Part shown: positions 1 to 20,772 of the stretch, piece by piece
Position numbering within the stretch: position 1 is the first letter of the stretch
Layout: each line of letters begins with the position of its first letter
Origin: Giardia intestinalis
Lineage: Eukaryota
Strand: one strand, 5' to 3'
Assembly: GCA_000002435.2 (NCBI GenBank)
Contig: CM018792.1
Length of the DNA: 64,000 nucleotides
Translations under genes and position numbers: made by a program
Notes under the pieces: generated by a model
Database searches by the model: none
The model's input: the letters and a program-made list of their open reading frames with translations, nothing else
What the model was told of the DNA's origin: nothing

Positions 1-3000
1 CCGCAAGATCGCCATGAGCAGGCACTTGTTCGACTTTCACGACCGCGCAGTCGCCAAGCACCGCGCAGAAAGGGCGCAGCAGGAGGCAGAGCGCCGAAGG
101 ACAGCGCTCCTCCAGTGCAAATCCGACGCGATAGCAGCTGGATACAACGAGTGGTACGACGCGCGGGTGTGCAAGGAGGAAGAGGAACACCTATCTAAGT
201 CAAAGCGCGACAGGTATGGCGGTAAACGGGCAGGCCTCTGGGAAGAGCATCTGATACTCAGCAACGCCTCTATTCGCGTTTCCTCAGTGGGCCCAGCAAG
301 GGCCCTTTCTGCTCCATATCAGCCAGCGTCTAATTGATGAAAAGTCTTCCTGCAAACCAAGTACTCTATTAAGTGGTTCGTTAGTGAATAGCACCTGTAC
401 CAAATAGAGAGTTGCATAACGAGCTCAGAGGTTTTCTTCCTCTGTTGAGCCCGTTGCATAGATGAAGTTGGTACGCCTCAATCAGATATCTGAAGTGCCT
501 CTTTATGAATGTACTCACAGATGCAACTAGAAGAGGTGCATCACACCTGACTCCATGTGTACAGACTTGACGCTATGCAAGATTACTTGACGGAAGTCTT
601 CAGGGACGCTAGTCATCGGTCTACACGCCAAGGATTAGGAGTCTACATAAGATGCTCTCGCTATACTCTTTTGTATGTTGAAAGGAGCTGATTTCCTAAA
701 ACACACTGATAAATATCAATAGCTTAAGCTTGAGGCCACAACTCCTCTTTGAACAACAGTCTATCGATGCTCAAGTATGGATTTCTAGAGTATTGATCAC
801 GATAACCAGGTCTTTGAGATTGTCTTAAATGTCCAACCTTTCTAAAGCGCAGTTTAAATGACTACTAGTTTCCATGGTTTGTAGGCCGTAGTATAGACTT
901 CGTTGAACTATTATACTTTTCCCATATCCCATAAACGTGCAGAAGGCTACTGTATTCTTGGAAGGGGTGATCTTTCATATATTTCTAAGCACTGAACCGT
1001 GGTTAGGATTGGTGTACAAGGTTATCAGACACACACGATGTCCATATTAAGACGCAGGACTTAAATGCTACAGGCGGCCTCAGAAAGAGCTCTCTGAGGG
1101 AACAAGAAGTGAGGCGACTAATGCACCGAAGATGCTGCGGGCCTCTGTCCACGGAGTGCAAACCCATTACTATGCAATTCGCTACCACAGGCTTCTGTCT
1201 GCGGCGACACAACTACTAGGTGACATCACACTCTGGAAGCTAGTGTGCGGGCTCACGTTGTAAGGTCGGCGGACCGGAGGATGCAGGAGCCACGGGGTAG
1301 TGACTGACCATCATGGCTTCTATAGGCTCTGCGGCTATTAGTACAGGGGCAGGGATGCTGCATCCTGGTGATTGGCCCAGAGCCGCACCATCCAATGGGC
1401 CGACGACCCTCATGTTGTTTCAATCTGAAGCGGCCTCCACTGCTGCCCCCGTACGAGTTGGAGAAGGGGTCGGCCCCATCGAATGCGGCAGAGAACAACA
1501 AGTCCCCAGTCTTCGGGCGAGGAAGATGGGTGATCTCGTCCAGGTGAAGCCGACTCCTCACCGTCCTCTGGGTCCTGCCTCTTCTACCGCCCTGGCACAA
1601 CATAGCTCGGTAGGGGGCGGCGTGTCTGCGCTACAGGACGCGTCGTCAAGAAAGAGTGGGCCTGGAGAGGCCCGACGGCCACCGCTGGGATAGGCCTCAG
1701 AAGCCCTTGGCTGCAGGATACGCTACTGCCAGGGTCAGTGCAGGCTATGGCTTTGAGGAAGCGCAGGACTGACGGGCGCTATCAGGAAACACCTGGCACG
1801 TTCTCGTGGAGAGGGGGACTCAGGCTTGGGGGCTTGGCAGTGTCGGGCCCGGGCTGGGTAGAGAGCTTGCTGTACCCGGAAGTGAAGACCCCAGCAAGCA
1901 GGAATAGTGGCCACAGCCAGTACAGCCGGCGGGTCGACCCGGGCCTCTTCAGCCGCGCTTGATGGAGCCCGACGTTGCGCCAGGCGACGGGACAGGGCAC
2001 CGGCCGTCTCTAGGGCATGCAGGAGGCGAGGCTTGTGAGCCCATGGGCGTCTGGCCTGCAAGCTGAGGCCACATCGGTGACGAGGCCCAGAGTGACGCAG
2101 CGTGGACGCTCTGTGGTGACGGGCCTGACAATGAGTGCAGCAAAGTTATGGGAATGGGCTCCGTCTGGGTCAGGACCTCAGAGTTCTCTTCGTCGTAAGG
2201 AAGAATAGGGCAGTGCGGTATAAGGGAGGCATCCGGCAAGATATGCTGGGAAACTGGCCCGTTGCGGTAAGTCACGGGCGCTGCCAAACACGGCGTCTCT
2301 TCTCTTAGACAGAAGACAGGCAGAATGGGTGACTGCGGAGGCTGCAGTGTCCGTGGTAGATCGCGGCATCGCAATGCGGCTGGGTCCGTGCCGGTGTGTC
2401 TGCCCGGACTCTAAGTGCGCTCTGAGGATCACCTGCTGATGGGCTGGAAGGCCCGAGAAGTGATGTGCTGCCCCTGTCATTGCGGGCAGCGCCCCGTGAC
2501 ACGCACTCGAGCCAGGGCCTCCTGGTGGCCAGAAGCAGAGCAGAGGCAGACGGCCGGTCGTGCATCCGTCCGGGCGGCTCACTGCATGTAGAGCGAAGAA
2601 GACCACTTGCGCCGCTCGGGTTATCGCTCAGCATCAAGTGCGGATGGAAGGCTGGGCCCGGCAACCAGGGCACCGACCTGTACGCTCCTGTCAGCCATCC
2701 CAGGCCGGCCAGAAGCCAGGCTCGACAGGCAGTGCAAAAGCCAGGGAAGCCAGCGTGATCATCGGGCCCGCGTTTGAATGCTAAAAAACTTGGGCGGCGA
2801 TGGCGACTGTCGTCTTCCTGGGAGGGCGCCTCTTCGCACAGGGTCAGCCGTCCTGGCCCTGCATGCTGGGTGCGCGGCTCGAGGGCGCGCTATGCTAGTT
2901 GAGGGCCTGCCAGGCGCTGCAGCCTACGAATAGCACGGACGGATGCAACGGGGTGTCCGAGCAGTGCACTGTCTTTGTCCCAGAGAGCTGTGGTTCTAAC

Positions 3001-6000
3001 CATGCGCCCTACACCAGCTCGGCATACCCCTGCTGCTTCCGCTGCTGGTCTGTCTGCCACTTGTTTATTATAGCGGGGGCGCATACGCTTGGGGTGTCGC
3101 CTAGGCACTGTAGTGGTCTTCTCTGACGGTGCGTGTATATTCACATGATGGCCGATGGGTGGAGCGGCTGCCTGATCTCCGAGCTCTCATTGCAACAAGG
3201 CGGGGCGTCGGCTGTCTACACGCCTCTAAGCGAGCCCGCGACCTCTGTGCAGATGCCTGCTCGCCGCGCTCCATAGTGACGGCTGTACACCCAGAAGGGG
3301 CTGCAGAATCCTCCGCTGTCCTTCGATGTGGACCACGGCTTGTGCACAGGCTAGCGACGGGGCCTGCACACTAGCTTCTATGGGCCCAGCCTGCCAGGCA
3401 CCTGGATCACAGTGCACGTCAAGACCGCACACTCGTTTGCATGCTCGCTGCTAATGTTGAACAGGACTGCGAGGGGTCTGTCTCTGGCCATCCTCGCCTT
3501 AGTACCTGGCCCTTGATGACACGCCTCAGTAGAGGATGGTGTCTTCTAAGTGCTCGGAAGACTATCCGTGCATGGCGGTTCCCGGAGAGTCGGTTCGCAC
3601 AGAAAGCGTAGATGTGCCCGGCGGGCTAGTGGGGTAAGGCTGGGGCTACAGAGACTAGCCATTAGTCCGGATTACAGCAGGGACACCTGTAGTGCCTCCT
3701 CGGCTCCTAAGCGTGGAAAGGCCGTAGAACTTGCAGATGAGTTGGAGGCTGCTTTTTGATTTTATGCATTTGCAGCAGAGCAGAGTTTACTGAAGGTCCA
3801 CTTATTCTAAATTCGAGGAGCCTCATCTCTTCCTCACACACGGTGAGATGATCGATTGTAGGGGTGTACTGTGCAAACCGGTGACAGTCAGCGTATCTAT
3901 TATCCAGACGGATACTGCCTGCGTCCTCCTGTGGCAGACCACCACCAGGGCCCCCAATCTACACATCTGTTCTGGCATCTGTCGGGCAATCATCACCTCC
4001 TGTCGAAGGATTGCTATACGTTACACATCTTGAGCCATCCATCGACCAGGTGGTGCCATAAGCTCTTGTCCCCTACTTGTCCACTCAATGCATACTCTGA
4101 GCGCCGCCAGTTGCACTCACGTCTGCACTACTCATCTGGATGCCCCCCACTCTTCAAGAGCACATGCCCGCAGCCGATGCTCCGTATTACAAGAGAAGTC
4201 AGCCGGATCACTGCGCTGTGCATAGCTCTCATAGGCGTGTTGCTATGCGCGCCCAGCCTTTCCACCCGTAGGCCGCCACGCGTTCACATGTGCGCCAGCG
4301 CCGCCGAGCTTTCGTGGTTTCGAGTGGCCCTGATGCATGGAGCGCTTGCGCACAAGTCCTTCCACCACTGACCCAGGCCGACCCCTCGCAAGATCCTTAG
4401 CGGAGTTGCATCCGAGATGTGTGTCTGCGTTGCTGTCCAGGTGCATGTGCCGGCCCTGGTGCTTCTCACAAGCTTGCGAGCATCGAGCTGGCCTCTACCG
4501 AACCGTATCAGAAGTCAGCACCAGGATGTGGTCCCCTCGGTTGGGCTCTGCAGGCTCCCAGAGCTACGCACCAAAGGGCCGTTCTTCTTTGCGCCGTGTA
4601 ACGTAGGGAGATGCACCGAGCTACTACGCCCTCTCCGTGTGGCGTGGTTTACGACGGGGGACGGGATCCCTGTGCTCATTGTCTATCTGCCCAGGGCCAG
4701 CCGCAGCCCGGGTTGAGGATGACAAGCGAAGATCTCCCAGCTCCTTGTCAGCGGGTGGGAGATCCCGCCACTCTAGTACCCACAACAAAGGGTGCCGATC
4801 ACTGGCAGAGGGACACGACACCCAGGCCCCGCTCCTTCCACTGATGGTACCTAATAAGAGACTCCTTTGTCGCCTGCACCAACAACCTCAGGCACCGTGG
4901 GTCAGAGTGCCTCCATAGTGGACAGCGGTAGCACTATGATGATCTGGGGTGATATGAGTCCTGGCTTACTGGCTCAGGAGGCAGCACGCTTTGGGTGGTT
5001 CTTCCCTCTTGTCCAGATCTGGGAGGGCTGGCTGCCTTCCGAGCCCCCTGGCACCTTGTCAGGTGATGGAGTGTCTTAAAGTATTCATTACAAAAGATCA
5101 GAAATAGCGCCATGCATTCCCAATAGATCAGAGGGTCTCACGAGCTACTCTATGCTGATTCACACCTTTCATGGACCCTAGCGACCACTGTAACCTTCTT
5201 TCGGGATCTTGCAAGGGACTGTCCTTGAGTGCGATTCCCCATGACAGCCGGGAGTCGCAGACATAATCCAAAGGGATGAGAGTACTACAGAGGCTGAGAG
5301 GAGAGTGCCGATGCACAGGGGTCCGCAGAGACCCGACTCGTACAGGGAAGGCGTGGAGGCTGGCTCTCCAGGGATGTAGAGCCACCAGGAAAGGAGCCGG
5401 CAGTGGGGCTGAGGGTCAGCAGAGGCACCCGAGCCGTCCTCTGATTGACCGCGAGGCAGCAGGCACATGGGGCGGCATCACCGCTTGTTTTTGGATTTTC
5501 TGCTTCCCTGCGCGTTGTGCAGGGGTCCGTAGTGGGTTGAGTATCACAGGCTACGCACAGCAACGCGTTTACTACCTAAGTACATCTACGCCTTCCCTCT
5601 GCAGATGAACCACCAGCAGAGGAAGCCCACAAGGCCTCCGACGACGACAATGACTGCGACAGAGATCCCCGCGATGGCACCGGTAGAAAGGCCGCTCTTG
5701 TTCGTGCTTCCGTCGGTACTGTCACCATCTTTTATGAGGTAGCAGAGGACGGAGCCACTACCAGCCGATGGAGGGGCGCAGCTAGCGCAGTTGGCGACGC
5801 CGGTGATGGATCCCCCGTCGCTCTTGTCGCATGCTATGCACTTTTCTTTGGACAGGTAGTACCCTGCAGCGCACACCGTGCACTTGGTGGCATCGTTCGC
5901 ATTGCACTCGGAGCACCCAGTGGCGCAGGGAACACACTTCTGAGTGTTACCGCCAGTCTTAGCATATCCAGCCTTGCACGTGTCGCACTGGTCCTGGCTG

Positions 6001-8424
6001 GTGCACGTCTTACATCCGGCCGAGCAAGTGGTGAGCGCGCCGTTATCCAGCTTGTACCCGTCGGCCGGAGTCTGACAAGCATCGCTCGCTTCTGCTGCGG
6101 CTAAGCAGACGCTCTTTCCGGGGAACTTGGTCGTCTCATAGCAGCCCCCGTTCATACGAAGAAGCCCGTTGGCGCATTTATTGCAAACACCACTTCCTTG
6201 AGTAGTGCACGTAATGGCCTTTCCGGCCGCCGCCGAGCAGACTCCGTTCTGCGGAAACTGGCCGGCGTCCTTGCACTTGGAGCAGTAGGCCGTGCCATTG
6301 ACCGTCAGCTCGCACTTCTCGCAGTTGTTAGCATTTGGCTCGCATCCTGGTTTGCACGTCCCCGTGTTGCCCTCTCCTTCGTAGCTGAGGGCCTTCTTAG
6401 GCTCGCAGCTCGTACACCCGTTGGAGTTCCCGTTCGCGCACGTCTTACACGAGGTATCGCACTTGGCACAGGCGGCTCCGCTCTTGTAATATCCGTCCTT
6501 GCAGGTATCACACTGTCCGTTCTCGTTGCACAGGAGGCAGTTCTCGACCTCGCACTTCTTGCAGGCCTTCTTGCCCCCCTCGTTGGTGCCCGCGTAGTAG
6601 CCTCCCAGATCTCCGCAGTTATCGATGCACTGGCCCGTGGGCGTGAGGGCCTTAGTGCCCTCGCACTCTGTGCACACCTCCTTGCTTGTCTTCGGCTCAC
6701 TGCATGTCTTGCAGCCGGGGGTGTTGCACTGGGGGTCGGATTTCTTCGTGCACCCGGTGCCCGCGTTGTCGGGAACGTAGCCCTCGACGCACTCACAAAC
6801 GCCAGAGGTCTTTTCCTCGTTGGAGTTCAAGGGGCAGCTTTCAACGCACCCCTTCTTGTTTGGCTGGATCTTCTTATTAGGCCCGCACGTCTTGCAAACC
6901 ACTCCGGTGGGGCCTTTCTCACAAGTGGCGCAGTCCACCGTCCCTCCGGAAGCGCAGGTGTTGCACTCCTTTGCTTCCTTATCAACGTAATGAGTTGCCG
7001 GGCAGCCGTTTGCGTCAACGCACGTGCCAGTTGTGGACTCGTCATCCTTCTTTAGGTACGGCTTGTCATCCTTGCAGGAGGTGCACTTCGCAGCCCCAGT
7101 CTTACAGGTCTTGCATGTCTCAGCGCACTTGCTGCATTTTTTACCGCCCGTTGTATCGACGAAGAACCCTTCAGTGCCGGTGCACTCCTGTTCCGTCACA
7201 CACGACGTCGCGCCCCCGTCCGTCTTAACAATCCTCGCGGTTTGCTGCGCATCAGGGCCGCACGCAGTACACTTAGCAACTCCATTAGCTTGGCTCGTCA
7301 GTGCAGACCCGTCACAGGTAGTGCACCCGGCCACGCCCGTGTATGTCTTATCGCCAAGCGTTATGCCCGTCGCGTCTCCGCACGGTATAACCGACTGGTG
7401 AGAGACATCTGCGCCCGGTGGCACGAAGTATCCTTGCGCGGCTTGTGTGCATTTTCCCTCAGAGGCTTGCGTGCACATGGTCTGTCCGGGCTGCTGGGCT
7501 GCTTCGTAACACCCGCCCTTGTACATGAAAGTCTGACCAGCGCACTGTCCACAGGTCTGATCGGCTGTATTGCCTCCGGAGCTATCTTTACACTTATCTG
7601 TTGCACCATCTTTGCCTACACATTTTCCATTGATAGGAACAGATCCTGCGTCACATTGAGAACAGTACAGCTTATCGCCAATCAGAACGTTACATGCGTC
7701 TGCTGCACAATTAGTGTTATCTGCGCATTGAACTTCCCGCACGTGCTCTGCTACTTTTTCTGCCCATGCAATCTGGATGGCTAGGCCCGCGAATATAAAA
7801 CTACCGAACATTAACCAATCTGATAAATTGATAGGAAAAGAATCGCGGTACGTTCAGCCAATCCGTGTGACTGACACACCGCGGAGTATGGTAGCCTGCT
7901 TGGCGATCAGTAATAAAACGGGATCCACTAGTCTTCTTGAATGTTGCTTCACCCCTCACAATCTAGACACAATGATGATCACCCGACCACTTGTGTGGCC
8001 CATTGTCTTGCAGCGCGGAGCCCTACAGTGGCCATCTTCTGAACGACGCCACCCTGCCATTCGCGGAGGGCCCCTCATCCTCCCTCGTTATAGACCGTGG
8101 CAAAAGAGACACAGCAGGCGGCTTGTCCATCTCCGTAAACATCCGAGAGGGCCCTGCCTGTCTGTGTGAGGAGGTTTACTCTTTCCACCGAGGGCGGTTT
8201 TCGACTACTTCCGGCGCATCAGTCGCGTCCGGGCGGTGGCGTGCCGCTGGGGCCTGCCTGCGGCGTGGTCCAGAAGTCTCACGGGTAAGCCTCGCTCAAT
8301 TCCCGGCCAGCCCGGAGGCGAAGGGTGGTCGTGGGTCGCAGTGATAGCCACAGCGGTGGCAAAGAGGGGTCCCCTCCACGTGTGGATCTGGGGTCTCGCG
8401 TTCCTCGGCTGTTCTGCGGGCATG
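1..8424. repeat. Left arm of a giant inverted repeat (palindrome), truncated at the window start. Mirror of ~11045..19468, with coordinates summing to 19469.
   Basis: Every six-frame ORF in 14..8420 has an exact or near-exact reverse-strand twin (e.g. 14..337+ vs 19132..19455-, 5586..7811- vs 11658..13883+, 8236..8420+ vs 11049..11233-). Nucleotide comparison at the inner edge shows identity decaying over 8415-8424 (catgtgcaca | caatcgg). Confidence 0.93.
5586..7811 (-). CDS. vsp: Variant-specific surface protein (VSP), 741 aa, left-arm copy
   Basis: Signal peptide MFGSFIFAGLAIQIAWA. Dozens of CXXC motifs and two GGCY motifs. C-terminal TM helix (GAIAGISVAVIVVVGGLVGFLCWWFI) followed by the invariant VSP tail CRGKA*. 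Giardia polyadenylation signal AGTAAAC lies 13 nt past the stop (5567..5573, minus strand). Confidence 0.95.
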   Translation of the reverse strand: MFGSFIFAGLAIQIAWAEKVAEHVREVQCADNTNCAADACNVLIGDKLYCSQCDAGSVPINGKCVGKDGATDKCKDSSGGNTADQTCGQCAGQTFMYKGGCYEAAQQPGQTMCTQASEGKCTQAAQGYFVPPGADVSHQSVIPCGDATGITLGDKTYTGVAGCTTCDGSALTSQANGVAKCTACGPDAQQTARIVKTDGGATSCVTEQECTGTEGFFVDTTGGKKCSKCAETCKTCKTGAAKCTSCKDDKPYLKKDDESTTGTCVDANGCPATHYVDKEAKECNTCASGGTVDCATCEKGPTGVVCKTCGPNKKIQPNKKGCVESCPLNSNEEKTSGVCECVEGYVPDNAGTGCTKKSDPQCNTPGCKTCSEPKTSKEVCTECEGTKALTPTGQCIDNCGDLGGYYAGTNEGGKKACKKCEVENCLLCNENGQCDTCKDGYYKSGAACAKCDTSCKTCANGNSNGCTSCEPKKALSYEGEGNTGTCKPGCEPNANNCEKCELTVNGTAYCSKCKDAGQFPQNGVCSAAAGKAITCTTQGSGVCNKCANGLLRMNGGCYETTKFPGKSVCLAAAEASDACQTPADGYKLDNGALTTCSAGCKTCTSQDQCDTCKAGYAKTGGNTQKCVPCATGCSECNANDATKCTVCAAGYYLSKEKCIACDKSDGGSITGVANCASCAPPSAGSGSVLCYLIKDGDSTDGSTNKSGLSTGAIAGISVAVIVVVGGLVGFLCWWFICRGKA

Positions 8425-9183
8425 TGCACACAATCGGACCTGAGGCGAAGGAGAGCCCGCGAGGACCCGATCCGCATTACGAACGCAAGATCGTACCTCC
8501 GGACCCCAAACAGCAAGCCGTGAGTCTCTACTTGGGAGACCACTCCGAAGACGCTTGCCCTCTGGCAGGACACACATGCTGGCTCTGTGGCCTACCGTGT
8601 GAGAGCGCCAACAACTAACCGAGCACCTGAGAGAAGCAAACGATGACAGACACAGAGTACCGGGCGACGACAAGCTGATCCTTCCGGCCCAGTACCGAAC
8701 CAGACAGAGCTCGCCATGCTCATCCACCAAGGTGCACCCATGATCGCGAGCATCGAGCAGGCAGGGACTGGGGTCGCTCTTCCCGCTATCAGGGGCCTAG
8801 ACGCCCTGGTGGGAAGCCCCAGAGGACTCAAGCAACACAGTAGAGCAGGCCCAGAGCAAGTCGGACCCAGATCCAGAGAGGGCGAGGCGCCGGATAGCAA
8901 ACAGGGTGAACAACGCGCTGAGCTTCGGGGCAGTTGCTAAGGCTCTCCGCGCCCTTGATGACACGCCCATGGTAGACATCAAGTCGGAGAAGGCCAAGGC
9001 TGCCCTCAGCGCGCTACACCCGTGCGTCCTCCCCGAAGGCTACGTTGGCCTTGACTACCCTCTATCGATGAACTCGACGGGGCTGGAGTGGCAACCGAGG
9101 AGGAAATGAGAAAGGCCCTGTTGGGACTCTCAACAAGAAGGCCTCGGGCGGTCCAGCTCAGGTGATGAAGCAGAACGACGACT

Positions 9184-9900
9184 GTGAAATGCCTCACGCA
9201 GGCGTACAACGAGCTGACCACCCACCCCGAAGGAGTCCGACGGATACCCCCGATCGCGATAGGCGAGACGGTCACGAACACCTTCCACCGCGTCCTGCTG
9301 AAGCGGCTGGTCAGGCATGCCAACTACCTCTCATGCGAACAGATCGCCTTCAAGCAGAACGCATACGCGGTAGGTGTGAGGAGGGCCCACGAGCTCATCA
9401 GCAGGCGGGGGTGCACCCCGTCTCCCTCGACATAAAGAACGCCCTCAACTCCCTCCCGAGGGCAGAGGTCGTCAGAGCCCTGAACGAGGCGGGCGTCCCG
9501 AAGGTCCTAGTCGACTACATTAGGAACTTCCTCGACCTGAGGCACAGCCGGGACGTGAAGTGCGAGGTCTGGGGCGTCCCCCAGGGCGACCCGCTCAGCA
9601 CTTTCCTCTTCTGCATGGCCATCGAGCGCCTCCTGAGACGCCTCAAGGAGAGGGGCATCACCTTCCTTGCCTAGCGGACGACATCGTGGCGCTCCACGAC
9701 GAGGCCTACCCGGCAGGCACGATAATACAGCAGGCCACGGTGGAGGCCGCCGCCATGGACCTGACGATCAGGAGCGACAAGTGCAAGTCCACCATGGCGG
9801 GCGAGGAGGTGACTTTCCTCAACCACCCGGTGTCCCCCACCCCTGCAAGCCTTGCCCCAAAGGCCATCGCAGGTGCTGAGACTGCCCCCATAACCATCCA
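9184..9900 (+). pseudogene. Reverse transcriptase domain of the dead retroelement, with frameshifts including a 1-bp deletion inside the YADD box
   Basis: gcc tag cgg acg aca at 9668..9682 would read FLA-YADD-IVAL if one C were restored (tac gcg gac gac). The RT motifs are spread over frames 1, 0 and 2. Confidence 0.8.
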
Positions 9901-10310
9901 CTAGAAGCTCATCTTGATGTCACTCTGTGTGGTCCCGATGGTGAACTACGCCCCCCTGGTCGAGATAACATCGGACAAGGCGGACTACGAGGAGCTCGAC
10001 AGACGTCGCACAAGGCTTCAGCAAAATAACCAACAGAAGCTGCGATCGCCTGGTCGACTTCCTGGCGTACCCGAAGGAGAAGGGCGGTCTGGGCCTGCTC
10101 ATGCCGGGGCTCTGCCACGACGAGCTGCGGAGGGCATGGGCCTCCCCGGACGTCAACAAGGGGACCAGGGACCCGGTGGAGCTGTCGGTGGGCGGCCAGG
10201 CACTGCAGGGGAAGGGGACCTACTTCAACCGCCTCCTCACGCGCACACATCAGCTTCCGGACAGAGCGGCGGCGTGCTGACCGAGGAGGAAAGGGCCCTG
10301 AAGGAGAGAG

Positions 10311-10802
10311 ATGGCTCGATCATGGCGCAGACAAGAGGCACCTGCCCAGGCTGCCACACGGCGAGGACCCTCGACCACGAGGCACGACATGATCGTCGCG
10401 TGCCTGTACCTCCGCGTCTCGGGGAAGTTCAACGCAGAGCTGGAGGTCAAGACCCACAGCCACCTCAGCGACCAGAACCAGAAGCCCGACATCTGGCTCG
10501 TCGACAAGTGCAAGGCAGTGGACGTGCGTGTCATCCAGCCCCGCCAGATGGATGCCTACTACAACGAGAAGGTCAAGAAGTACAGGGACGGGACGCTCCC
10601 GATCATCTACGGGACAGACGGCTCCCTCCACCCCAGTCCAAGGGGCACCTCGAGGAGCTCCACGTGGACCTCTATCCGGGCTGCCTTCGCCATCGCCCAC
10701 ATGGCTGCAAAGGCGAACGAGCACCCGACGAAGCTGATCAGACGCGACCGGGCCGAAAGCCTGGCCACCCAGAGCGACCGCCTCCTGTCATCCTACTTCT
10801 GA
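10311..10802 (+). pseudogene. REL-endonuclease-like C-terminal domain fragment of the dead retroelement. It is preceded by CCHC zinc-finger remnants in another frame.
   Basis: KPDIWLVD...VDVRV...EKVKKY resembles the PD-(D/E)XK motif of R2/NeSL/GilM-type elements. A Cys/His cluster lies upstream in frame 2 (9914..). Confidence 0.6.
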
Positions 10803-11657
10803 CAACCGAATGAGCCCATCCCTGGGACCTGTCGACAACGATCGAGGGGGGGGCAAAGACTGGACACACAACCGAGTTGAATCCCAACCAGTGGAGAGAG
10901 CCCCGCTAGCTGCTGCTGATCTACATGGACAGTATCGAAAATGACAACAAAGACCAGAGCTTCACCCACCATGAAGGGAGAACAAGGAGAGGCACCCTCA
11001 GTAGAACAGTGAGTCCGTAAGAAAACCTCGAAAAGATCGATGTGCACGCCCGCGGAACAGCCGAGGAACGCGAGACCCCAGATCCACACGTGGAGGGGAC
11101 CCCTCTTTGCCACCGCTGTGGCTATCACTGCGACCCACGACCACCCTTCGCCTCCGGGCTGGCCGGGAATTGAGCGAGGCTTACCCGTGAGACTTCTGGA
11201 CCACGCCGCAGGCAGGCCCCAGCGGCACGCCACCGCCCGGACGCGACTGATGCGCCGGAAGTAGTCGAAAACCGCCCTCGGTGGAAAGAGTAAACCTCCT
11301 CACACAGACAGGCAGGGCCCTCTCGGATGTTTACGGAGATGGACAAGCCGCCTGCTGTGTCTCTTTTGCCACGGTCTATAACGAGGGAGGATGAGGGGCC
11401 CTCCGCGAATGGCAGGGTGGCGTCGTTCAGAAGATGGCCACTGTAGGGCTCCGCGCTGCAAGACAATGGGCCACACAAGTGGTCGGGTGATCATCATTGT
11501 GTCTAGATTGTGAGGGGTGAAGCAACATTCAAGAAGACTAGTGGATCCCGTTTTATTACTGATCGCCAAGCAGGCTACCATACTCCGCGGTGTGTCAGTC
11601 ACACGGATTGGCTGAACGTACCGCGATTCTTTTCCTATCAATTTATCAGATTGGTTA

Positions 11658-13883
11658 ATGTTCGGTAGTTTTATATTCGCGGGCCTAGCCATCCAGATTG
11701 CATGGGCAGAAAAAGTAGCAGAGCACGTGCGGGAAGTTCAATGCGCAGATAACACTAATTGTGCAGCAGACGCATGTAACGTTCTGATTGGCGATAAGCT
11801 GTACTGTTCTCAATGTGACGCAGGATCTGTTCCTATCAATGGAAAATGTGTAGGCAAAGATGGTGCAACAGATAAGTGTAAAGATAGCTCCGGAGGCAAT
11901 ACAGCCGATCAGACCTGTGGACAGTGCGCTGGTCAGACTTTCATGTACAAGGGCGGGTGTTACGAAGCAGCCCAGCAGCCCGGACAGACCATGTGCACGC
12001 AAGCCTCTGAGGGAAAATGCACACAAGCCGCGCAAGGATACTTCGTGCCACCGGGCGCAGATGTCTCTCACCAGTCGGTTATACCGTGCGGAGACGCGAC
12101 GGGCATAACGCTTGGCGATAAGACATACACGGGCGTGGCCGGGTGCACTACCTGTGACGGGTCTGCACTGACGAGCCAAGCTAATGGAGTTGCTAAGTGT
12201 ACTGCGTGCGGCCCTGATGCGCAGCAAACCGCGAGGATTGTTAAGACGGACGGGGGCGCGACGTCGTGTGTGACGGAACAGGAGTGCACCGGCACTGAAG
12301 GGTTCTTCGTCGATACAACGGGCGGTAAAAAATGCAGCAAGTGCGCTGAGACATGCAAGACCTGTAAGACTGGGGCTGCGAAGTGCACCTCCTGCAAGGA
12401 TGACAAGCCGTACCTAAAGAAGGATGACGAGTCCACAACTGGCACGTGCGTTGACGCAAACGGCTGCCCGGCAACTCATTACGTTGATAAGGAAGCAAAG
12501 GAGTGCAACACCTGCGCTTCCGGAGGGACGGTGGACTGCGCCACTTGTGAGAAAGGCCCCACCGGAGTGGTTTGCAAGACGTGCGGGCCTAATAAGAAGA
12601 TCCAGCCAAACAAGAAGGGGTGCGTTGAAAGCTGCCCCTTGAACTCCAACGAGGAAAAGACCTCTGGCGTTTGTGAGTGCGTCGAGGGCTACGTTCCCGA
12701 CAACGCGGGCACCGGGTGCACGAAGAAATCCGACCCCCAGTGCAACACCCCCGGCTGCAAGACATGCAGTGAGCCGAAGACAAGCAAGGAGGTGTGCACA
12801 GAGTGCGAGGGCACTAAGGCCCTCACGCCCACGGGCCAGTGCATCGATAACTGCGGAGATCTGGGAGGCTACTACGCGGGCACCAACGAGGGGGGCAAGA
12901 AGGCCTGCAAGAAGTGCGAGGTCGAGAACTGCCTCCTGTGCAACGAGAACGGACAGTGTGATACCTGCAAGGACGGATATTACAAGAGCGGAGCCGCCTG
13001 TGCCAAGTGCGATACCTCGTGTAAGACGTGCGCGAACGGGAACTCCAACGGGTGTACGAGCTGCGAGCCTAAGAAGGCCCTCAGCTACGAAGGAGAGGGC
13101 AACACGGGGACGTGCAAACCAGGATGCGAGCCAAATGCTAACAACTGCGAGAAGTGCGAGCTGACGGTCAATGGCACGGCCTACTGCTCCAAGTGCAAGG
13201 ACGCCGGCCAGTTTCCGCAGAACGGAGTCTGCTCGGCGGCGGCCGGAAAGGCCATTACGTGCACTACTCAAGGAAGTGGTGTTTGCAATAAATGCGCCAA
13301 CGGGCTTCTTCGTATGAACGGGGGCTGCTATGAGACGACCAAGTTCCCCGGAAAGAGCGTCTGCTTAGCCGCAGCAGAAGCGAGCGATGCTTGTCAGACT
13401 CCGGCCGACGGGTACAAGCTGGATAACGGCGCGCTCACCACTTGCTCGGCCGGATGTAAGACGTGCACCAGCCAGGACCAGTGCGACACGTGCAAGGCTG
13501 GATATGCTAAGACTGGCGGTAACACTCAGAAGTGTGTTCCCTGCGCCACTGGGTGCTCCGAGTGCAATGCGAACGATGCCACCAAGTGCACGGTGTGCGC
13601 TGCAGGGTACTACCTGTCCAAAGAAAAGTGCATAGCATGCGACAAGAGCGACGGGGGATCCATCACCGGCGTCGCCAACTGCGCTAGCTGCGCCCCTCCA
13701 TCGGCTGGTAGTGGCTCCGTCCTCTGCTACCTCATAAAAGATGGTGACAGTACCGACGGAAGCACGAACAAGAGCGGCCTTTCTACCGGTGCCATCGCGG
13801 GGATCTCTGTCGCAGTCATTGTCGTCGTCGGAGGCCTTGTGGGCTTCCTCTGCTGGTGGTTCATCTGCAGAGGGAAGGCGTAG
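11658..13883 (+). CDS. vsp: Variant-specific surface protein (VSP), 741 aa, right-arm copy. Protein-identical to 5586..7811 and head-to-head with it.
   Basis: Same 741-aa translation as the left copy. AT-rich initiator context caatttatcagattggttaATG. AGTAAAC polyadenylation signal at 13896..13902. Confidence 0.95.
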   Translation: MFGSFIFAGLAIQIAWAEKVAEHVREVQCADNTNCAADACNVLIGDKLYCSQCDAGSVPINGKCVGKDGATDKCKDSSGGNTADQTCGQCAGQTFMYKGGCYEAAQQPGQTMCTQASEGKCTQAAQGYFVPPGADVSHQSVIPCGDATGITLGDKTYTGVAGCTTCDGSALTSQANGVAKCTACGPDAQQTARIVKTDGGATSCVTEQECTGTEGFFVDTTGGKKCSKCAETCKTCKTGAAKCTSCKDDKPYLKKDDESTTGTCVDANGCPATHYVDKEAKECNTCASGGTVDCATCEKGPTGVVCKTCGPNKKIQPNKKGCVESCPLNSNEEKTSGVCECVEGYVPDNAGTGCTKKSDPQCNTPGCKTCSEPKTSKEVCTECEGTKALTPTGQCIDNCGDLGGYYAGTNEGGKKACKKCEVENCLLCNENGQCDTCKDGYYKSGAACAKCDTSCKTCANGNSNGCTSCEPKKALSYEGEGNTGTCKPGCEPNANNCEKCELTVNGTAYCSKCKDAGQFPQNGVCSAAAGKAITCTTQGSGVCNKCANGLLRMNGGCYETTKFPGKSVCLAAAEASDACQTPADGYKLDNGALTTCSAGCKTCTSQDQCDTCKAGYAKTGGNTQKCVPCATGCSECNANDATKCTVCAAGYYLSKEKCIACDKSDGGSITGVANCASCAPPSAGSGSVLCYLIKDGDSTDGSTNKSGLSTGAIAGISVAVIVVVGGLVGFLCWWFICRGKA

Positions 13884-13895
13884 ATGTACTTAGGT

Positions 13896-13902
13896 AGTAA
13901 AC
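13896..13902 (+). terminator. Giardia polyadenylation signal AGTAAAC (AGTRAAY consensus) for the right VSP copy. The mirror on the minus strand is at 5567..5573.
   Basis: Exact AGTAAAC 13 nt downstream of the TAG stop. The same motif class follows RPL13A (around 25691) and overlaps the EF-2 stop (38002..38008). Confidence 0.7.
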
Positions 13903-16900
13903 GCGTTGCTGTGCGTAGCCTGTGATACTCAACCCACTACGGACCCCTGCACAACGCGCAGGGAAGCAGAAAATCCAAAAACAAGCGGTGATGCCGCCCC
14001 ATGTGCCTGCTGCCTCGCGGTCAATCAGAGGACGGCTCGGGTGCCTCTGCTGACCCTCAGCCCCACTGCCGGCTCCTTTCCTGGTGGCTCTACATCCCTG
14101 GAGAGCCAGCCTCCACGCCTTCCCTGTACGAGTCGGGTCTCTGCGGACCCCCGTGCATCGGCGCTCTCCTCTCAGCCTCTGTAGTACTCTCATCCCTTTG
14201 GATTATGTCTGCGACTCCCGGCTGTCATGGGGAATCGCACTCAAGGACAGTCCCTTGCAAGATCCCGAAAGAAGGTTACAGTGGTCGCTAGGGTCCATGA
14301 AAGGTGTGAATCAGCATAGAGTAGCTCGTGAGACCCTCTGATCTATTGGGAATGCATGGCGCTATTTCTGATCTTTTGTAATGAATACTTTAAGACACTC
14401 CATCACCTGACAAGGTGCCAGGGGGCTCGGAAGGCAGCCAGCCCTCCCAGATCTGGACAAGAGGGAAGAACCACCCAAAGCGTGCTGCCTCCTGAGCCAG
14501 TAAGCCAGGACTCATATCACCCCAGATCATCATAGTGCTACCGCTGTCCACTATGGAGGCACTCTGACCCACGGTGCCTGAGGTTGTTGGTGCAGGCGAC
14601 AAAGGAGTCTCTTATTAGGTACCATCAGTGGAAGGAGCGGGGCCTGGGTGTCGTGTCCCTCTGCCAGTGATCGGCACCCTTTGTTGTGGGTACTAGAGTG
14701 GCGGGATCTCCCACCCGCTGACAAGGAGCTGGGAGATCTTCGCTTGTCATCCTCAACCCGGGCTGCGGCTGGCCCTGGGCAGATAGACAATGAGCACAGG
14801 GATCCCGTCCCCCGTCGTAAACCACGCCACACGGAGAGGGCGTAGTAGCTCGGTGCATCTCCCTACGTTACACGGCGCAAAGAAGAACGGCCCTTTGGTG
14901 CGTAGCTCTGGGAGCCTGCAGAGCCCAACCGAGGGGACCACATCCTGGTGCTGACTTCTGATACGGTTCGGTAGAGGCCAGCTCGATGCTCGCAAGCTTG
15001 TGAGAAGCACCAGGGCCGGCACATGCACCTGGACAGCAACGCAGACACACATCTCGGATGCAACTCCGCTAAGGATCTTGCGAGGGGTCGGCCTGGGTCA
15101 GTGGTGGAAGGACTTGTGCGCAAGCGCTCCATGCATCAGGGCCACTCGAAACCACGAAAGCTCGGCGGCGCTGGCGCACATGTGAACGCGTGGCGGCCTA
15201 CGGGTGGAAAGGCTGGGCGCGCATAGCAACACGCCTATGAGAGCTATGCACAGCGCAGTGATCCGGCTGACTTCTCTTGTAATACGGAGCATCGGCTGCG
15301 GGCATGTGCTCTTGAAGAGTGGGGGGCATCCAGATGAGTAGTGCAGACGTGAGTGCAACTGGCGGCGCTCAGAGTATGCATTGAGTGGACAAGTAGGGGA
15401 CAAGAGCTTATGGCACCACCTGGTCGATGGATGGCTCAAGATGTGTAACGTATAGCAATCCTTCGACAGGAGGTGATGATTGCCCGACAGATGCCAGAAC
15501 AGATGTGTAGATTGGGGGCCCTGGTGGTGGTCTGCCACAGGAGGACGCAGGCAGTATCCGTCTGGATAATAGATACGCTGACTGTCACCGGTTTGCACAG
15601 TACACCCCTACAATCGATCATCTCACCGTGTGTGAGGAAGAGATGAGGCTCCTCGAATTTAGAATAAGTGGACCTTCAGTAAACTCTGCTCTGCTGCAAA
15701 TGCATAAAATCAAAAAGCAGCCTCCAACTCATCTGCAAGTTCTACGGCCTTTCCACGCTTAGGAGCCGAGGAGGCACTACAGGTGTCCCTGCTGTAATCC
15801 GGACTAATGGCTAGTCTCTGTAGCCCCAGCCTTACCCCACTAGCCCGCCGGGCACATCTACGCTTTCTGTGCGAACCGACTCTCCGGGAACCGCCATGCA
15901 CGGATAGTCTTCCGAGCACTTAGAAGACACCATCCTCTACTGAGGCGTGTCATCAAGGGCCAGGTACTAAGGCGAGGATGGCCAGAGACAGACCCCTCGC
16001 AGTCCTGTTCAACATTAGCAGCGAGCATGCAAACGAGTGTGCGGTCTTGACGTGCACTGTGATCCAGGTGCCTGGCAGGCTGGGCCCATAGAAGCTAGTG
16101 TGCAGGCCCCGTCGCTAGCCTGTACACAAGCCGTGGTCCACATCGAAGGACAGCGGAGGATTCTGCAGCCCCTTCTGGGTGTACAGCCGTCACTATGGAG
16201 CGCGGCGAGCAGGCATCTGCACAGAGGTCGCGGGCTCGCTTAGAGGCGTGTAGACAGCCGACGCCCCGCCTTGTTGCAATGAGAGCTCGGAGATCAGGCA
16301 GCCGCTCCACCCATCGGCCATCATGTGAATATACACGCACCGTCAGAGAAGACCACTACAGTGCCTAGGCGACACCCCAAGCGTATGCGCCCCCGCTATA
16401 ATAAACAAGTGGCAGACAGACCAGCAGCGGAAGCAGCAGGGGTATGCCGAGCTGGTGTAGGGCGCATGGTTAGAACCACAGCTCTCTGGGACAAAGACAG
16501 TGCACTGCTCGGACACCCCGTTGCATCCGTCCGTGCTATTCGTAGGCTGCAGCGCCTGGCAGGCCCTCAACTAGCATAGCGCGCCCTCGAGCCGCGCACC
16601 CAGCATGCAGGGCCAGGACGGCTGACCCTATGCGAAGAGGCGCCCTCCCAGGAAGACGACAGTCGCCATCGCCGCCCAAGTTTTTTAGCATTCAAACGCG
16701 GGCCCGATGATCACGCTGGCTTCCCTGGCTTTTGCACTGCCTGTCGAGCCTGGCTTCTGGCCGGCCTGGGATGGCTGACAGGAGCGTACAGGTCGGTGCC
16801 CTGGTTGCCGGGCCCAGCCTTCCATCCGCACTTGATGCTGAGCGATAACCCGAGCGGCGCAAGTGGTCTTCTTCGCTCTACATGCAGTGAGCCGCCCGGA

Positions 16901-19131
16901 CGGATGCACGACCGGCCGTCTGCCTCTGCTCTGCTTCTGGCCACCAGGAGGCCCTGGCTCGAGTGCGTGTCACGGGGCGCTGCCCGCAATGACAGGGGCA
17001 GCACATCACTTCTCGGGCCTTCCAGCCCATCAGCAGGTGATCCTCAGAGCGCACTTAGAGTCCGGGCAGACACACCGGCACGGACCCAGCCGCATTGCGA
17101 TGCCGCGATCTACCACGGACACTGCAGCCTCCGCAGTCACCCATTCTGCCTGTCTTCTGTCTAAGAGAAGAGACGCCGTGTTTGGCAGCGCCCGTGACTT
17201 ACCGCAACGGGCCAGTTTCCCAGCATATCTTGCCGGATGCCTCCCTTATACCGCACTGCCCTATTCTTCCTTACGACGAAGAGAACTCTGAGGTCCTGAC
17301 CCAGACGGAGCCCATTCCCATAACTTTGCTGCACTCATTGTCAGGCCCGTCACCACAGAGCGTCCACGCTGCGTCACTCTGGGCCTCGTCACCGATGTGG
17401 CCTCAGCTTGCAGGCCAGACGCCCATGGGCTCACAAGCCTCGCCTCCTGCATGCCCTAGAGACGGCCGGTGCCCTGTCCCGTCGCCTGGCGCAACGTCGG
17501 GCTCCATCAAGCGCGGCTGAAGAGGCCCGGGTCGACCCGCCGGCTGTACTGGCTGTGGCCACTATTCCTGCTTGCTGGGGTCTTCACTTCCGGGTACAGC
17601 AAGCTCTCTACCCAGCCCGGGCCCGACACTGCCAAGCCCCCAAGCCTGAGTCCCCCTCTCCACGAGAACGTGCCAGGTGTTTCCTGATAGCGCCCGTCAG
17701 TCCTGCGCTTCCTCAAAGCCATAGCCTGCACTGACCCTGGCAGTAGCGTATCCTGCAGCCAAGGGCTTCTGAGGCCTATCCCAGCGGTGGCCGTCGGGCC
17801 TCTCCAGGCCCACTCTTTCTTGACGACGCGTCCTGTAGCGCAGACACGCCGCCCCCTACCGAGCTATGTTGTGCCAGGGCGGTAGAAGAGGCAGGACCCA
17901 GAGGACGGTGAGGAGTCGGCTTCACCTGGACGAGATCACCCATCTTCCTCGCCCGAAGACTGGGGACTTGTTGTTCTCTGCCGCATTCGATGGGGCCGAC
18001 CCCTTCTCCAACTCGTACGGGGGCAGCAGTGGAGGCCGCTTCAGATTGAAACAACATGAGGGTCGTCGGCCCATTGGATGGTGCGGCTCTGGGCCAATCA
18101 CCAGGATGCAGCATCCCTGCCCCTGTACTAATAGCCGCAGAGCCTATAGAAGCCATGATGGTCAGTCACTACCCCGTGGCTCCTGCATCCTCCGGTCCGC
18201 CGACCTTACAACGTGAGCCCGCACACTAGCTTCCAGAGTGTGATGTCACCTAGTAGTTGTGTCGCCGCAGACAGAAGCCTGTGGTAGCGAATTGCATAGT
18301 AATGGGTTTGCACTCCGTGGACAGAGGCCCGCAGCATCTTCGGTGCATTAGTCGCCTCACTTCTTGTTCCCTCAGAGAGCTCTTTCTGAGGCCGCCTGTA
18401 GCATTTAAGTCCTGCGTCTTAATATGGACATCGTGTGTGTCTGATAACCTTGTACACCAATCCTAACCACGGTTCAGTGCTTAGAAATATATGAAAGATC
18501 ACCCCTTCCAAGAATACAGTAGCCTTCTGCACGTTTATGGGATATGGGAAAAGTATAATAGTTCAACGAAGTCTATACTACGGCCTACAAACCATGGAAA
18601 CTAGTAGTCATTTAAACTGCGCTTTAGAAAGGTTGGACATTTAAGACAATCTCAAAGACCTGGTTATCGTGATCAATACTCTAGAAATCCATACTTGAGC
18701 ATCGATAGACTGTTGTTCAAAGAGGAGTTGTGGCCTCAAGCTTAAGCTATTGATATTTATCAGTGTGTTTTAGGAAATCAGCTCCTTTCAACATACAAAA
18801 GAGTATAGCGAGAGCATCTTATGTAGACTCCTAATCCTTGGCGTGTAGACCGATGACTAGCGTCCCTGAAGACTTCCGTCAAGTAATCTTGCATAGCGTC
18901 AAGTCTGTACACATGGAGTCAGGTGTGATGCACCTCTTCTAGTTGCATCTGTGAGTACATTCATAAAGAGGCACTTCAGATATCTGATTGAGGCGTACCA
19001 ACTTCATCTATGCAACGGGCTCAACAGAGGAAGAAAACCTCTGAGCTCGTTATGCAACTCTCTATTTGGTACAGGTGCTATTCACTAACGAACCACTTAA
19101 TAGAGTACTTGGTTTGCAGGAAGACTTTTCA

Positions 19132-19650
19132 TCAATTAGACGCTGGCTGATATGGAGCAGAAAGGGCCCTTGCTGGGCCCACTGAGGAAACGCGAATAGA
19201 GGCGTTGCTGAGTATCAGATGCTCTTCCCAGAGGCCTGCCCGTTTACCGCCATACCTGTCGCGCTTTGACTTAGATAGGTGTTCCTCTTCCTCCTTGCAC
19301 ACCCGCGCGTCGTACCACTCGTTGTATCCAGCTGCTATCGCGTCGGATTTGCACTGGAGGAGCGCTGTCCTTCGGCGCTCTGCCTCCTGCTGCGCCCTTT
19401 CTGCGCGGTGCTTGGCGACTGCGCGGTCGTGAAAGTCGAACAAGTGCCTGCTCATGGCGATCTTGCGGGCCGCTCTGTACACCTCGCCGGCCTTTTCCGA
19501 ACGCCGCCAGAGGGCCTGGCTTCGGCGGTCCGCCGCTTCCTCGACAGAGCGCGTCCTCCGGAGGGGCTGCGCTAGCCGCGCGACAACGTGGCCGGGCAGC
19601 GGCCTCCTGAAGGGCTGGCCAGACGGGACCGTGAAGTAGCTGAACGCCAT
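19132..19650 (-). CDS. Hypothetical protein (172 aa). The C-terminal 108 codons lie inside the inverted repeat and are duplicated at 14..337 (+).
   Basis: ATG-initiated ORF with a charged coiled-coil-like stretch (AERAQQEAERRR). It is GC-rich like the repeat arms. No recognisable domain. Confidence 0.35.
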   Translation of the reverse strand: MAFSYFTVPSGQPFRRPLPGHVVARLAQPLRRTRSVEEAADRRSQALWRRSEKAGEVYRAARKIAMSRHLFDFHDRAVAKHRAERAQQEAERRRTALLQCKSDAIAAGYNEWYDARVCKEEEEHLSKSKRDRYGGKRAGLWEEHLILSNASIRVSSVGPARALSAPYQPASN

Positions 19651-19854
19651 CCTTTTCTTTCCACCCGGGTCAGCAGGTCAGCAGGCTCGCACCCGTCGCA
19701 GGCCTCCCGGCGCGCCCGGAGTAAGCTTTGGGGATGCCCACATTTCAGAAGTATTCAAATCCTAACTACATTACATAGTCATAATCTCAATACGAAGAAA
19801 CAGTCGGCCTACTAAGTTACCAATGGACGTACCAAGCAAGTTAATGGGAGCTAT

Positions 19855-20595
19855 TCACTTTGTGAAGGTCTTAGAAAAGTATTCCTTCTTCTTTTCGGGA
19901 TCAGGAATAATGAAGTCGTTCTTCTCAGGAGTCCAGCCGCACGGGATGACACCGCCGGTTTTATCAGCGTACTGGAAGGCCTGAATCATACGCATAGCTT
20001 CTTCGACAGAGCGACCCACAGGAAAATCGTTAATTGTAACATGGCGTACAATTCCTTTATCGGAGACGATAAACATGGCACGCAGAGCAAGACCCATTTC
20101 CTCAACGAGTATGCCAAAATCACGTGCCATCTTATGATTCGTGTCGGCGAATAGATCACATTTGCAGGGCCCGATCCCCCCGTCTGTCTTATTCTGAAGG
20201 CACCAAGCGTGGTGGCTATAAACAGTGTCTGTCGAGCCAATGATAATCTCAGTGTTATACTTCTTCTTCAGTTGCTCAGCCATAGAGGAAAAATGAATGA
20301 TCTCAGAGGGACAGACAAAGGTGAAGTCGGCTGGATAGAAGAAGATGATCAGATATTTGCCCTTGTAATCTGCAAGCTTACGCTTAGTAAACTTGAGTTC
20401 AGGGGTAAGGACCTCCACTTCAAAGTCGGGACAAGGGGTGCCTGGAATGGGAACGGAACTGGTTGTCTTGAGCTGCATGCAGACTTCTGTGTCGCCAAAC
20501 TTCTCACACTTATCAGGTATGCACGTATTCTTATTCACGGTCAGCGTACAAGCAGCCGCAAAGGCAACCGAGATAAGACATATCAGCAGTAGCAT
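19855..20595 (-). CDS. Typical 2-Cys peroxiredoxin (thioredoxin peroxidase) with an N-terminal signal peptide
   Basis: FFYPADFTFVCPSEI peroxidatic-Cys motif and VIPCGW resolving-Cys motif. A hydrophobic N-terminus MLLLICLISVAFAAA is predicted. The ORF runs in frame up to 20739, but that 48-aa Arg-rich extension is probably not translated. Confidence 0.9.
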   Translation of the reverse strand: MLLLICLISVAFAAACTLTVNKNTCIPDKCEKFGDTEVCMQLKTTSSVPIPGTPCPDFEVEVLTPELKFTKRKLADYKGKYLIIFFYPADFTFVCPSEIIHFSSMAEQLKKKYNTEIIIGSTDTVYSHHAWCLQNKTDGGIGPCKCDLFADTNHKMARDFGILVEEMGLALRAMFIVSDKGIVRHVTINDFPVGRSVEEAMRMIQAFQYADKTGGVIPCGWTPEKNDFIIPDPEKKKEYFSKTFTK

Positions 20596-20772
20596 TTTTA
20601 TTGGGCCTTTTTCGTGTAAATTACTTCCAGCTTCATTCTTTAACACGATACTGCATCTGCGCCTTCGTCTCCCCCTCCTCTCACAATAGTGCCCCTTCCT
20701 GCATAATGCTAACTGCTTTGCAAGAGCCTGTAGTGTCACATATATCTTAGAGGTATATGCTTAAAATATAAC

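Follow-up and report, generated by a model that had tools for sequence, protein, structure and literature searches.

For the way in which Giardia intestinalis expresses one variant-specific surface protein (VSP) out of about 136, RNA interference (RNAi), microRNA and epigenetic models each find support. As a source of VSP antisense RNA, a hairpin encoded in the genome would offer a trigger that is concrete and can be tested. Such a source is suggested by a palindromic VSP locus in a 64,000-nucleotide (nt) stretch of contig CM018792.1 of G. intestinalis (assembly GCA_000002435.2), the whole of which is referred to as the window. A first-pass annotation had proposed the locus to be a built-in source of double-stranded RNA (dsRNA) for VSP switching. 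In isolate WB the locus is known on chromosome 4 as the published head-to-head pair GL50803_00111933/00111936 (vsp162.2/162.1), and we consider it probable that its two members are ordinary, independently transcribed genes of a known inverted VSP pair with no dedicated hairpin role. The structure, the genes, the identity of the locus and both of its arms were worked out here, while RNA levels, protein and the family of pairs were taken from the literature; what we infer is that gene conversion took part, where the antisense RNA comes from and that the locus lacks a dedicated hairpin role.

The inverted VSP pair

A single long repeat is present in the window; it is inverted, its arms occupy 1-8424 and 11045-19468, and a unique spacer of 2620 nt lies between them (Table 1). 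Base-by-base comparison of the arms gave 6 mismatches over 8424 nt (99.93% identity), all of them transitions, at positions 2839, 3345, 5306, 5317, 8415 and 8422 in left-arm numbering. The complementarity, which had been annotated as perfect, is thus near-perfect. The annotated interval, 5586-13883, is bounded by the stop codons of the two VSPs; its paired parts are 5586-8424 and 11045-13883, in which mismatches are confined to the final 10 nt beside the spacer. An inverted repeat over this interval is real, but the true palindrome is approximately three times longer. Divergence is abrupt at the inner boundaries between arm and spacer (8424 and 11045). The left arm begins in the middle of an open reading frame (ORF) at position 1 and is therefore cut by the window. 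Logan short-read contigs place the true outer boundaries at window position 19727 and 259 nt to the left of position 1, with a full arm length of 8683 nt. In five such contigs (L001-L005) a unique left flank, encoding a zf-CHY protein, a NEK kinase and others, is joined to the arm; these contigs match window positions 1-1117 and, as reverse complement, 19727-18352 at 100% identity and diverge beyond. A sixth contig (L006) leads from the arm through 19727 into a unique right flank that carries the ORF at 19855-20739. Chance cannot have produced 8.4 kb at 99.93% complementarity, and the palindromic observation is confirmed.

The second arm could in principle be an error of assembly, with either a mis-join (fold-back or chimeric) or a collapsed repeat behind it. 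Between the arms there is hardly any difference and the left one reaches the window edge, and pairs of this kind were formerly questioned as artefacts and often ended contigs in the old assembly. However, the arms differ at 6 positions, the left and the right flank are each joined to the arm in independent short-read assemblies, with both outer junctions present in several independent Sequence Read Archive (SRA) runs, and the same head-to-head pair with 3846/3847-bp spacing is found in the Sanger as well as in the PacBio and optical-map assemblies of WB. On account of the junctions and of the recurrence of the pair in both WB assemblies an artefact is practically ruled out.

The two VSP ORFs are arranged head-to-head and face outward, with 0 mismatches between 5586-7811 and 11658-13883. 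As annotated, the repeat takes in the entire ORF, so that both copies of 741 amino acids (aa) are identical, and roughly 600 nt upstream of the ORF are also the same in both copies. The protein matches the Pfam VSP family PF03302 with E=1.6e-140 (468.9 bits against a cutoff of 31.4). The TAATGTT motif at the start codon is given for vsp162.1/162.2 in the supplement of Adam 2010 (PMC2996952) and in Table S1 of Rodriguez-Walker (10.1101/2022.03.07.483299). Downstream, the AGTAAA hexamer of the extended VSP poly(A) signal ACTTAGGTAGTAAAC begins 13 nt past the stop codon, and TACTTAGGTAGTAAACGCGT is given for both genes in Table S6 of the latter source (10.1101/2022.03.07.483299). With a signal peptide, a CXXC-rich ectodomain, a C-terminal transmembrane (TM) segment, the CRGKA tail, the initiator and the extended poly(A) signal, all features of the VSP family are present. 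The representative of the corresponding protein cluster (P0001), named XP_001704664.1 (G. lamblia ATCC 50803) and listed as 100% identical, agrees with the window VSP in 740 of 741 residues; newer annotation uses XP_001704664.2 and XP_001704669.1. The closest non-identical VSP (P0002), a single-copy gene with unique flanks in the assembly of another isolate, shows 79% protein identity and shares 407 exact 25-mers with the window gene. Exact-protein look-ups of the window VSP, of the WB paralogues P0003, P0005 and P0017 and of one spacer ORF returned no record.

The gap between the ORFs is 3846 nt and the distance from ATG to ATG is 3847. Adam et al. 2010 (PMC2996952) described four head-to-head identical pairs and gave a spacing of 3847 nt for vsp162 (Table 5), naming GL50803_111936 as vsp162.1 and GL50803_111933 as vsp162.2 in the supplement; a 3' divergence point is absent for vsp162 because the contig ended there. 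In Table 2 of Xu et al. 2020 (PMC7000408) the pair 111933/111936 is entered on chromosome 4 in the orientation <- ->, with 741 aa, 3846 bp and a psiRT in between. As spacing, protein length, orientation and psiRT all agree with the published tables, the locus is identified as the vsp162 pair, and the structural observation is already published. Sources count 19-20 identical VSP pairs in WB; one of them gives 20, of which 13 are tail-to-tail and 7 head-to-head (10.1101/2022.03.07.483299). No arrangement other than the inverted pair was found for identical VSP genes (PMC2996952), and seven identical inverted pairs occur in G. muris. The window locus shares the attributes of this family, namely identical ORFs, inversion with a spacing in the range of about 2-6 kb and flanks that are identical up to an abrupt divergence. 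Beyond the published tables, the 8683-nt arms, the 6 arm differences, a duplicated inward-facing ORF of 172 aa and the positions of poly(A) hexamers were worked out here.

The spacer carries a relic of a non-long terminal repeat (non-LTR) reverse transcriptase (RT) on the plus strand, which, as had been annotated, points into the right VSP. RVT_1 is matched with E=2.6e-10 and 2.2e-3 in two different frames. All close database relatives of the relic are pieces of Giardia RT, 83-212 aa long and with 78-91% identity; outside this fragment family the next one has 39% protein identity. Since RVT_1 is split by frames and the relatives are only fragments, the relic fits a dead retroelement family, which judging from these matches appears to be widespread and uniformly decayed. 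Several Giardia isolates contribute these relatives, among them assemblage A2 (DHA2 names). Small interfering RNAs (siRNAs) that originate from active GilM or GilT and target the spacer were also considered and are unlikely, as the only relative outside the fragment family is 39% identical. Retrotransposon relics are noted between head-to-head pairs (10.1101/2022.03.07.483299) and are present in 4 of the 7 such pairs (PMC7000408). Rodriguez-Walker list 'two retrotransposon relics' for the vsp162 pair, and its spacer and the one of 119706/119707, a chromosome 3 pair with a different VSP of 673 aa, are called 'very similar' (10.1101/2022.03.07.483299).

The locus would have arisen by inverted segmental duplication of a VSP-bearing segment, leaving 8.7-kb arms around a 2.6-kb unique spacer with its dead RT relic. 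The 99.93% arm identity would be due to a duplication in the recent past, to gene conversion between the arms or to a combination of the two. The similarity of the spacer to that of the chromosome 3 pair, together with the different VSP there and the identity of the copies within each pair, suggests that modules were copied, with each palindrome then homogenised by gene conversion between its arms.

Possible transcription across the axis

Any RNA that contains both arms would fold back on itself, and this part of the first-pass annotation follows directly from the sequence. As the VSP genes are divergent and each has its own poly(A) signal, normal VSP mRNAs never cross the axis; each gene would be transcribed outward from its own initiator motif and ended by its own extended poly(A) signal. 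A duplex that covers the ORF requires a transcript of at least 8.3 kb that starts beyond the 3' end of one VSP and is antisense through the first copy, and that then passes the 613 nt of arm upstream of this copy, the spacer of 2620 nt and the equivalent 613 nt in the other arm before it reads through the second ORF.

In Giardia the hexamer AGURAA serves as poly(A) signal, without auxiliary elements (PMC9014877). In the palindrome AGTRAA occurs on the plus strand at 383, 1881, 11289, 13896 and 15678, and on the minus strand at the mirror positions plus 19086. The plus strand is free of the hexamer from 1881 to 11289 and the minus strand from 17588 to 8180, which would let a transcript running inward pass through all of one VSP copy and the spacer. 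The hexamer that it then encounters lies 245 nt into the second arm. Use of this hexamer (11289 or 8180) would limit the stem formed in cis to about 245 bp of upstream non-coding DNA, outside the ORF, and the antisense VSP tail would be left single-stranded, where it could pair with VSP mRNA in trans, for which the palindrome is not needed. A cis hairpin that contains the ORF would thus be expected only where a rare transcript of 8.3 kb or more reads on past the AGTRAA that follows the axis. The density of AGTRAA per kb and strand is 0.25 in 1-19727 vs 0.45 in 19728-64000, and the sparser occurrence within the palindrome is probably due to its higher GC content.

These positions bear on the alternative that the locus is a dedicated hairpin-RNA locus, that is a source of endogenous siRNAs (endo-siRNAs). 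A transcript from the distal arm, or read-through from the 172-aa gene, would run antisense through one VSP, across the spacer and into the other copy and fold into a duplex of more than 2 kb, which Dicer would cut into siRNAs of about 25-26 nt that silence this VSP and its close paralogues. The geometry fits this proposal, an inward-facing gene is found at the distal end of each arm and the path across the first copy and the spacer is free of AGTRAA on either strand. Giardia Dicer cuts dsRNA to 25-26 nt in vitro, and RNA-dependent RNA polymerase (RdRP), Dicer and Argonaute have been implicated in VSP control, according to work cited in PMC2817412. The 25-mers shared with the 79%-identical VSP make cross-targeting of close paralogues possible, and the restriction of identical VSPs to inverted pairs (PMC2996952) agrees with a role for the geometry. 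On the other hand, the sense transcripts of the divergent genes stay off the axis and AGTRAA at 11289/8180 is met before the second ORF. When the RNA and protein data below are also taken into account, a dedicated hairpin locus is unlikely. Silencing of the whole family via the conserved VSP 3' end was rejected, as comparison with a single related VSP gave no exact 25-mer in common over the final 160 nt, which argues against family-wide targeting.

RNA, protein and the weighing of the readings

Strand-specific RNA levels were taken from Table S9 of 10.1101/2022.03.07.483299, in which transcripts per million (TPM) are reported for three clones, with multi-mapping reads counted fractionally and antisense TPM normalised separately from sense TPM. 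The first-pass annotation had named a lack of antisense or small-RNA reads over the VSP among the observations that would speak against a hairpin; antisense RNA is in fact detected. Per copy, 111933/111936 show 2.0-5.9 TPM sense and 16-35 TPM antisense, and the uniquely mappable spacer pseudogene 111935 shows 4-16 TPM sense and 25-58 TPM antisense (Table S9, 10.1101/2022.03.07.483299). Spacer RNA is hence low on both strands, and it may be continuous with the arms or separate from them. Antisense over the locus is likewise low, since ordinary genes in the same table reach 50-900 antisense TPM (10.1101/2022.03.07.483299). A reading of the values as antisense at roughly 8 times sense was rejected in view of the separate normalisation and of these ordinary genes.

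Among the VSPs sampled from this table, paired and unpaired genes do not differ in antisense RNA per copy. The median of the mean antisense TPM per copy was 76 for 9 identical pairs vs 44 for 15 unpaired genes (Mann-Whitney p=0.63), and this locus, with 22.7 antisense TPM per copy, was the 8th lowest of the 24 VSPs sampled. Head-to-head pairs spanned 23-81 and tail-to-tail pairs 17-125 antisense TPM per copy, and the ranges overlap. Sense exceeds antisense in only 12-20% of VSPs (10.1101/2022.03.07.483299), and antisense RNA is therefore a property of the VSP family as a whole. The low antisense RNA at the locus most likely originates from the pervasive, bidirectional or read-through transcription that is general to Giardia (PMC1885649, PMC3610916) and to VSP loci, and dsRNA, if formed, would result from pairing with sense mRNA in trans. 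As to sense RNA, three head-to-head psiRT pairs (111933/6, 112801 and 119706/7) show 3-5 TPM per copy and four tail-to-tail pairs 19-71 TPM per copy, a sample too small to interpret.

VSP1267, an identical inverted pair with a 2.6-kb spacer, reaches 17,987 sense TPM per copy in the expressing clone 2 (10.1101/2022.03.07.483299), and the GL50803_111933 protein has been found by mass spectrometry in trophozoites. Self-silencing of such pairs is therefore not obligatory, and conditional silencing is possible. Repression of the cognate gene, which is expected of an endo-siRNA locus, is thus not seen in the published protein and VSP1267 data. For the hairpin proposal these are adverse observations: a palindromic pair can be the dominant expressed VSP, the protein of the window VSP is detected, antisense RNA here is among the lowest sampled with pairs equal to singles per copy, and the sense signal, which would include the second arm of a hairpin, amounts to only 2-6 TPM per copy. 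Furthermore, 96 of the 136 VSPs are unpaired and show the same mutually exclusive expression, that is they are silenced without any palindrome. The antisense VSP reads and the both-strand spacer reads stand on its favourable side. A literature search confined to open-access papers found no proposal or test of hairpin RNA and no report of small RNAs for VSP pairs, and the published paper on Argonaute-associated small RNAs makes no mention of siRNAs from VSP pairs. Of the first-pass proposal, the geometry and the presence of antisense RNA are thus borne out; the further step to a built-in dsRNA source for VSP switching is not supported, and the level of the antisense RNA is low and per copy not above that of unpaired genes. 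The proposed hairpin function is unproven and somewhat disfavoured.

In a wider form of the proposal all identical inverted VSP pairs would be dsRNA-generating loci, at which rare axis-crossing transcripts are diced and siRNAs of 25-26 nt seed the silencing of the VSP and its close paralogues; we regard this as very unlikely. If true, a dsRNA reading would explain why identical VSPs are only found inverted in G. intestinalis and why such pairs recur in G. muris, and it would supply a trigger within the genome for the RNAi model of antigenic variation, which is under debate. The published strand-specific RNA-seq singles out neither this pair nor paired VSPs, and paired VSPs can be fully expressed. 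The hairpin idea, which may be unpublished, accordingly stays a cheap, testable hypothesis and not an evidence-backed lead.

A further alternative places the role of the palindrome at the level of DNA or chromatin, with the arms serving as a gene-conversion substrate that preserves or diversifies VSPs or with the dead retroelement nucleating repressive chromatin over the flanking promoters. Arms at 99.93% identity together with a spacer like that of a chromosome 3 pair with a different VSP are the pattern expected from concerted evolution. The presence of RT relics in 4 of 7 head-to-head pairs, the lower sense RNA of the head-to-head psiRT pairs compared to the tail-to-tail pairs sampled and the histone-acetylation mechanism proposed for VSP control in work cited in Adam 2010 (PMC2996952) point the same way. 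However, the sequence says nothing on chromatin state, many unpaired VSPs are also low in sense RNA, and the mismatch-free stretch 5318-8414 is not a significant departure from uniformity (estimated P ~0.2). We regard such a role as unlikely.

The preferred reading, an inverted pair of ordinary genes, has to be held against several points. Antisense RNA over the pair and spacer RNA from both strands mean that inward transcription reaching the spacer exists, and axis-crossing transcripts are possible. The RNA-seq comparison covers 24 of the 136 VSPs and rests on fractional multi-mapping counts and separately normalised antisense TPM. The single AGTRAA on the crossing path is no departure from chance (2.6 ± 1.6 expected) and roughly 40% of Giardia genes are without an AGURAA hexamer (PMC9014877); termination at 11289/8180 is for both reasons a prediction. 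Finally, the exclusively inverted arrangement of identical genes and its recurrence in G. muris could reflect selection for something that the geometry provides.

The remaining features concern the outer arms and the flanks. Each arm bears the 172-aa ORF in its outer part, where GC is about 47%. An AGTRAA hexamer follows 46 nt past the stop codon of this ORF, and many independent assemblies carry a gene call for it (67 blocks); no Pfam family is assigned to it in the precomputed annotation. The ORF may correspond to GL50803_00111938, for which zero unique-mapping reads, 4-13 sense TPM and almost no antisense are given (Table S9, 10.1101/2022.03.07.483299). Towards the VSP the arm is ORF-less; this stretch, which adjoins each VSP, had been annotated as an AT-rich flank and is GC-rich instead (57-63% GC). 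By tblastn no VSP or RT remnant was found in it (E<1e-4) and no further one in the arms as a whole, and an Rfam scan and Tandem Repeats Finder over 1-21000 gave no family and no tandem repeat. At 5.2 kb this non-coding stretch is unusually long, the median intergenic length of the genome being 79 nt. In L001-L006, which stem from six different SRA runs, every contig that enters the arm from a flank ends exactly at 1117/1118 or at the mirror position 18352/18351. Inspection of the sequence around 1117/1118 showed nothing unusual there; further inward, the DNA may be polymorphic or may recur at other places in the genome, such as other VSP modules. The first gene outside the right arm, the minus-strand ORF at 19855-20739, may encode a peroxiredoxin (AhpC/TSA-like) with a hydrophobic N-terminal extension, as judged by eye. 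Short-read contigs that come in from the right flank are interrupted at about 19954, within this ORF, whose 3' end may be repeated elsewhere.

Table 1. Coordinates of the palindrome and its features in the window.
Feature	Position	Strand	Remarks
Left VSP copy, 741 aa	5586-7811	-	Transcribed leftward, away from the axis; one member of GL50803_00111933/00111936
Right VSP copy, 741 aa	11658-13883	+	Signal peptide, CXXC motifs, TM segment, CRGKA tail
VSP initiator/Kozak-like motif TAATGTT at start codon	11655-11662	+	Mirror copy 7807-7814 (-)
Extended VSP poly(A) signal ACTTAGGTAGTAAAC	13889-13903	+	Mirror ~5566-5580 (-)
Unique spacer (loop), 2620 nt	8425-11044	.	Mirrored-position identity 24%, the random level
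Frameshifted non-LTR RT relic, pseudogene GL50803_00111935	9243-10294	+	Points toward right VSP; tblastn extent
Left arm	1-8424	.	Cut by the window; true start 259 nt further left
Right arm, as seen against the left arm in the window	11045-19468	.	Homology continues to 19727
Outermost 259 nt of right arm	19469-19727	.	Mirror just outside the window; from L001-L005
AGTRAA hexamer met after axis crossing	11289-11294	+	369 nt before right VSP ATG
Mirror AGTRAA hexamer met after axis crossing	8175-8180	-	Before left VSP ORF
172-aa ORF, wholly within arm, inward-transcribed	19132-19650	-	Mirror is window 1-337 (+), off left edge
ORF-less GC-rich (57-63%) stretch, 5.2 kb	338-5585	.	Mirror 13884-19131

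Comparison with known systems

The closest system is that of the identical inverted VSP pairs of Giardia WB, first described for vsp1267 (PMC2996952, PMC7000408, 10.1101/2022.03.07.483299), of which the locus is a member. It shares with them identical head-to-head ORFs, the 3846-bp gap with an RT relic inside and arms that end in abrupt divergence. The published tables cover ORF spacing and near flanks, and nothing essential differs from them.

Hairpin-RNA and endo-siRNA loci include the Drosophila hairpin RNA (hpRNA) loci, the inverted pseudogene repeats of mouse oocytes and the siRNA loci of Trypanosoma brucei with inverted repeats or convergent transcription. Such loci are defined by a single transcription unit over both arms and by abundant Dicer-dependent small RNAs. 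Both attributes are hypothetical for the Giardia locus, which resembles these loci in having a long inverted repeat with a loop, in the long duplex that would form if it were one unit and in a host that has Dicer and Argonaute. In contrast to them its arms hold intact coding genes with outward promoters and terminators, and its loop of 2.6 kb calls for a transcript of at least 8.3 kb.

The relic in the spacer resembles the dead Giardia non-LTR family GilD, as far as described in the work of Arkhipova and Morrison 2001 cited in PMC7000408, in its frameshifted RVT_1, in its internal rather than telomeric position and in having only short Giardia RT fragments as close relatives. Its RT domain is disrupted by frameshifts and no intact close relative was found among the database matches, as is the case for a dead retrotransposon. 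From the absence of a full-length close relative the relic would seem GilD-like rather than a decayed GilM or GilT.

The human Y-chromosome palindromes P1-P8 are large, near-identical and kept so by arm-to-arm gene conversion. They are much larger, with tens of kb to Mb compared to 8.7 kb here, and conversion at the Giardia locus is only suggested by the published remark on spacer similarity. As on the Y chromosome, arms on the kb scale that are more than 99.9% identical (99.93% over 8424 nt) surround a unique spacer and contain members of a multigene family, and the copies are alike within a palindrome while the palindromes differ from one another.

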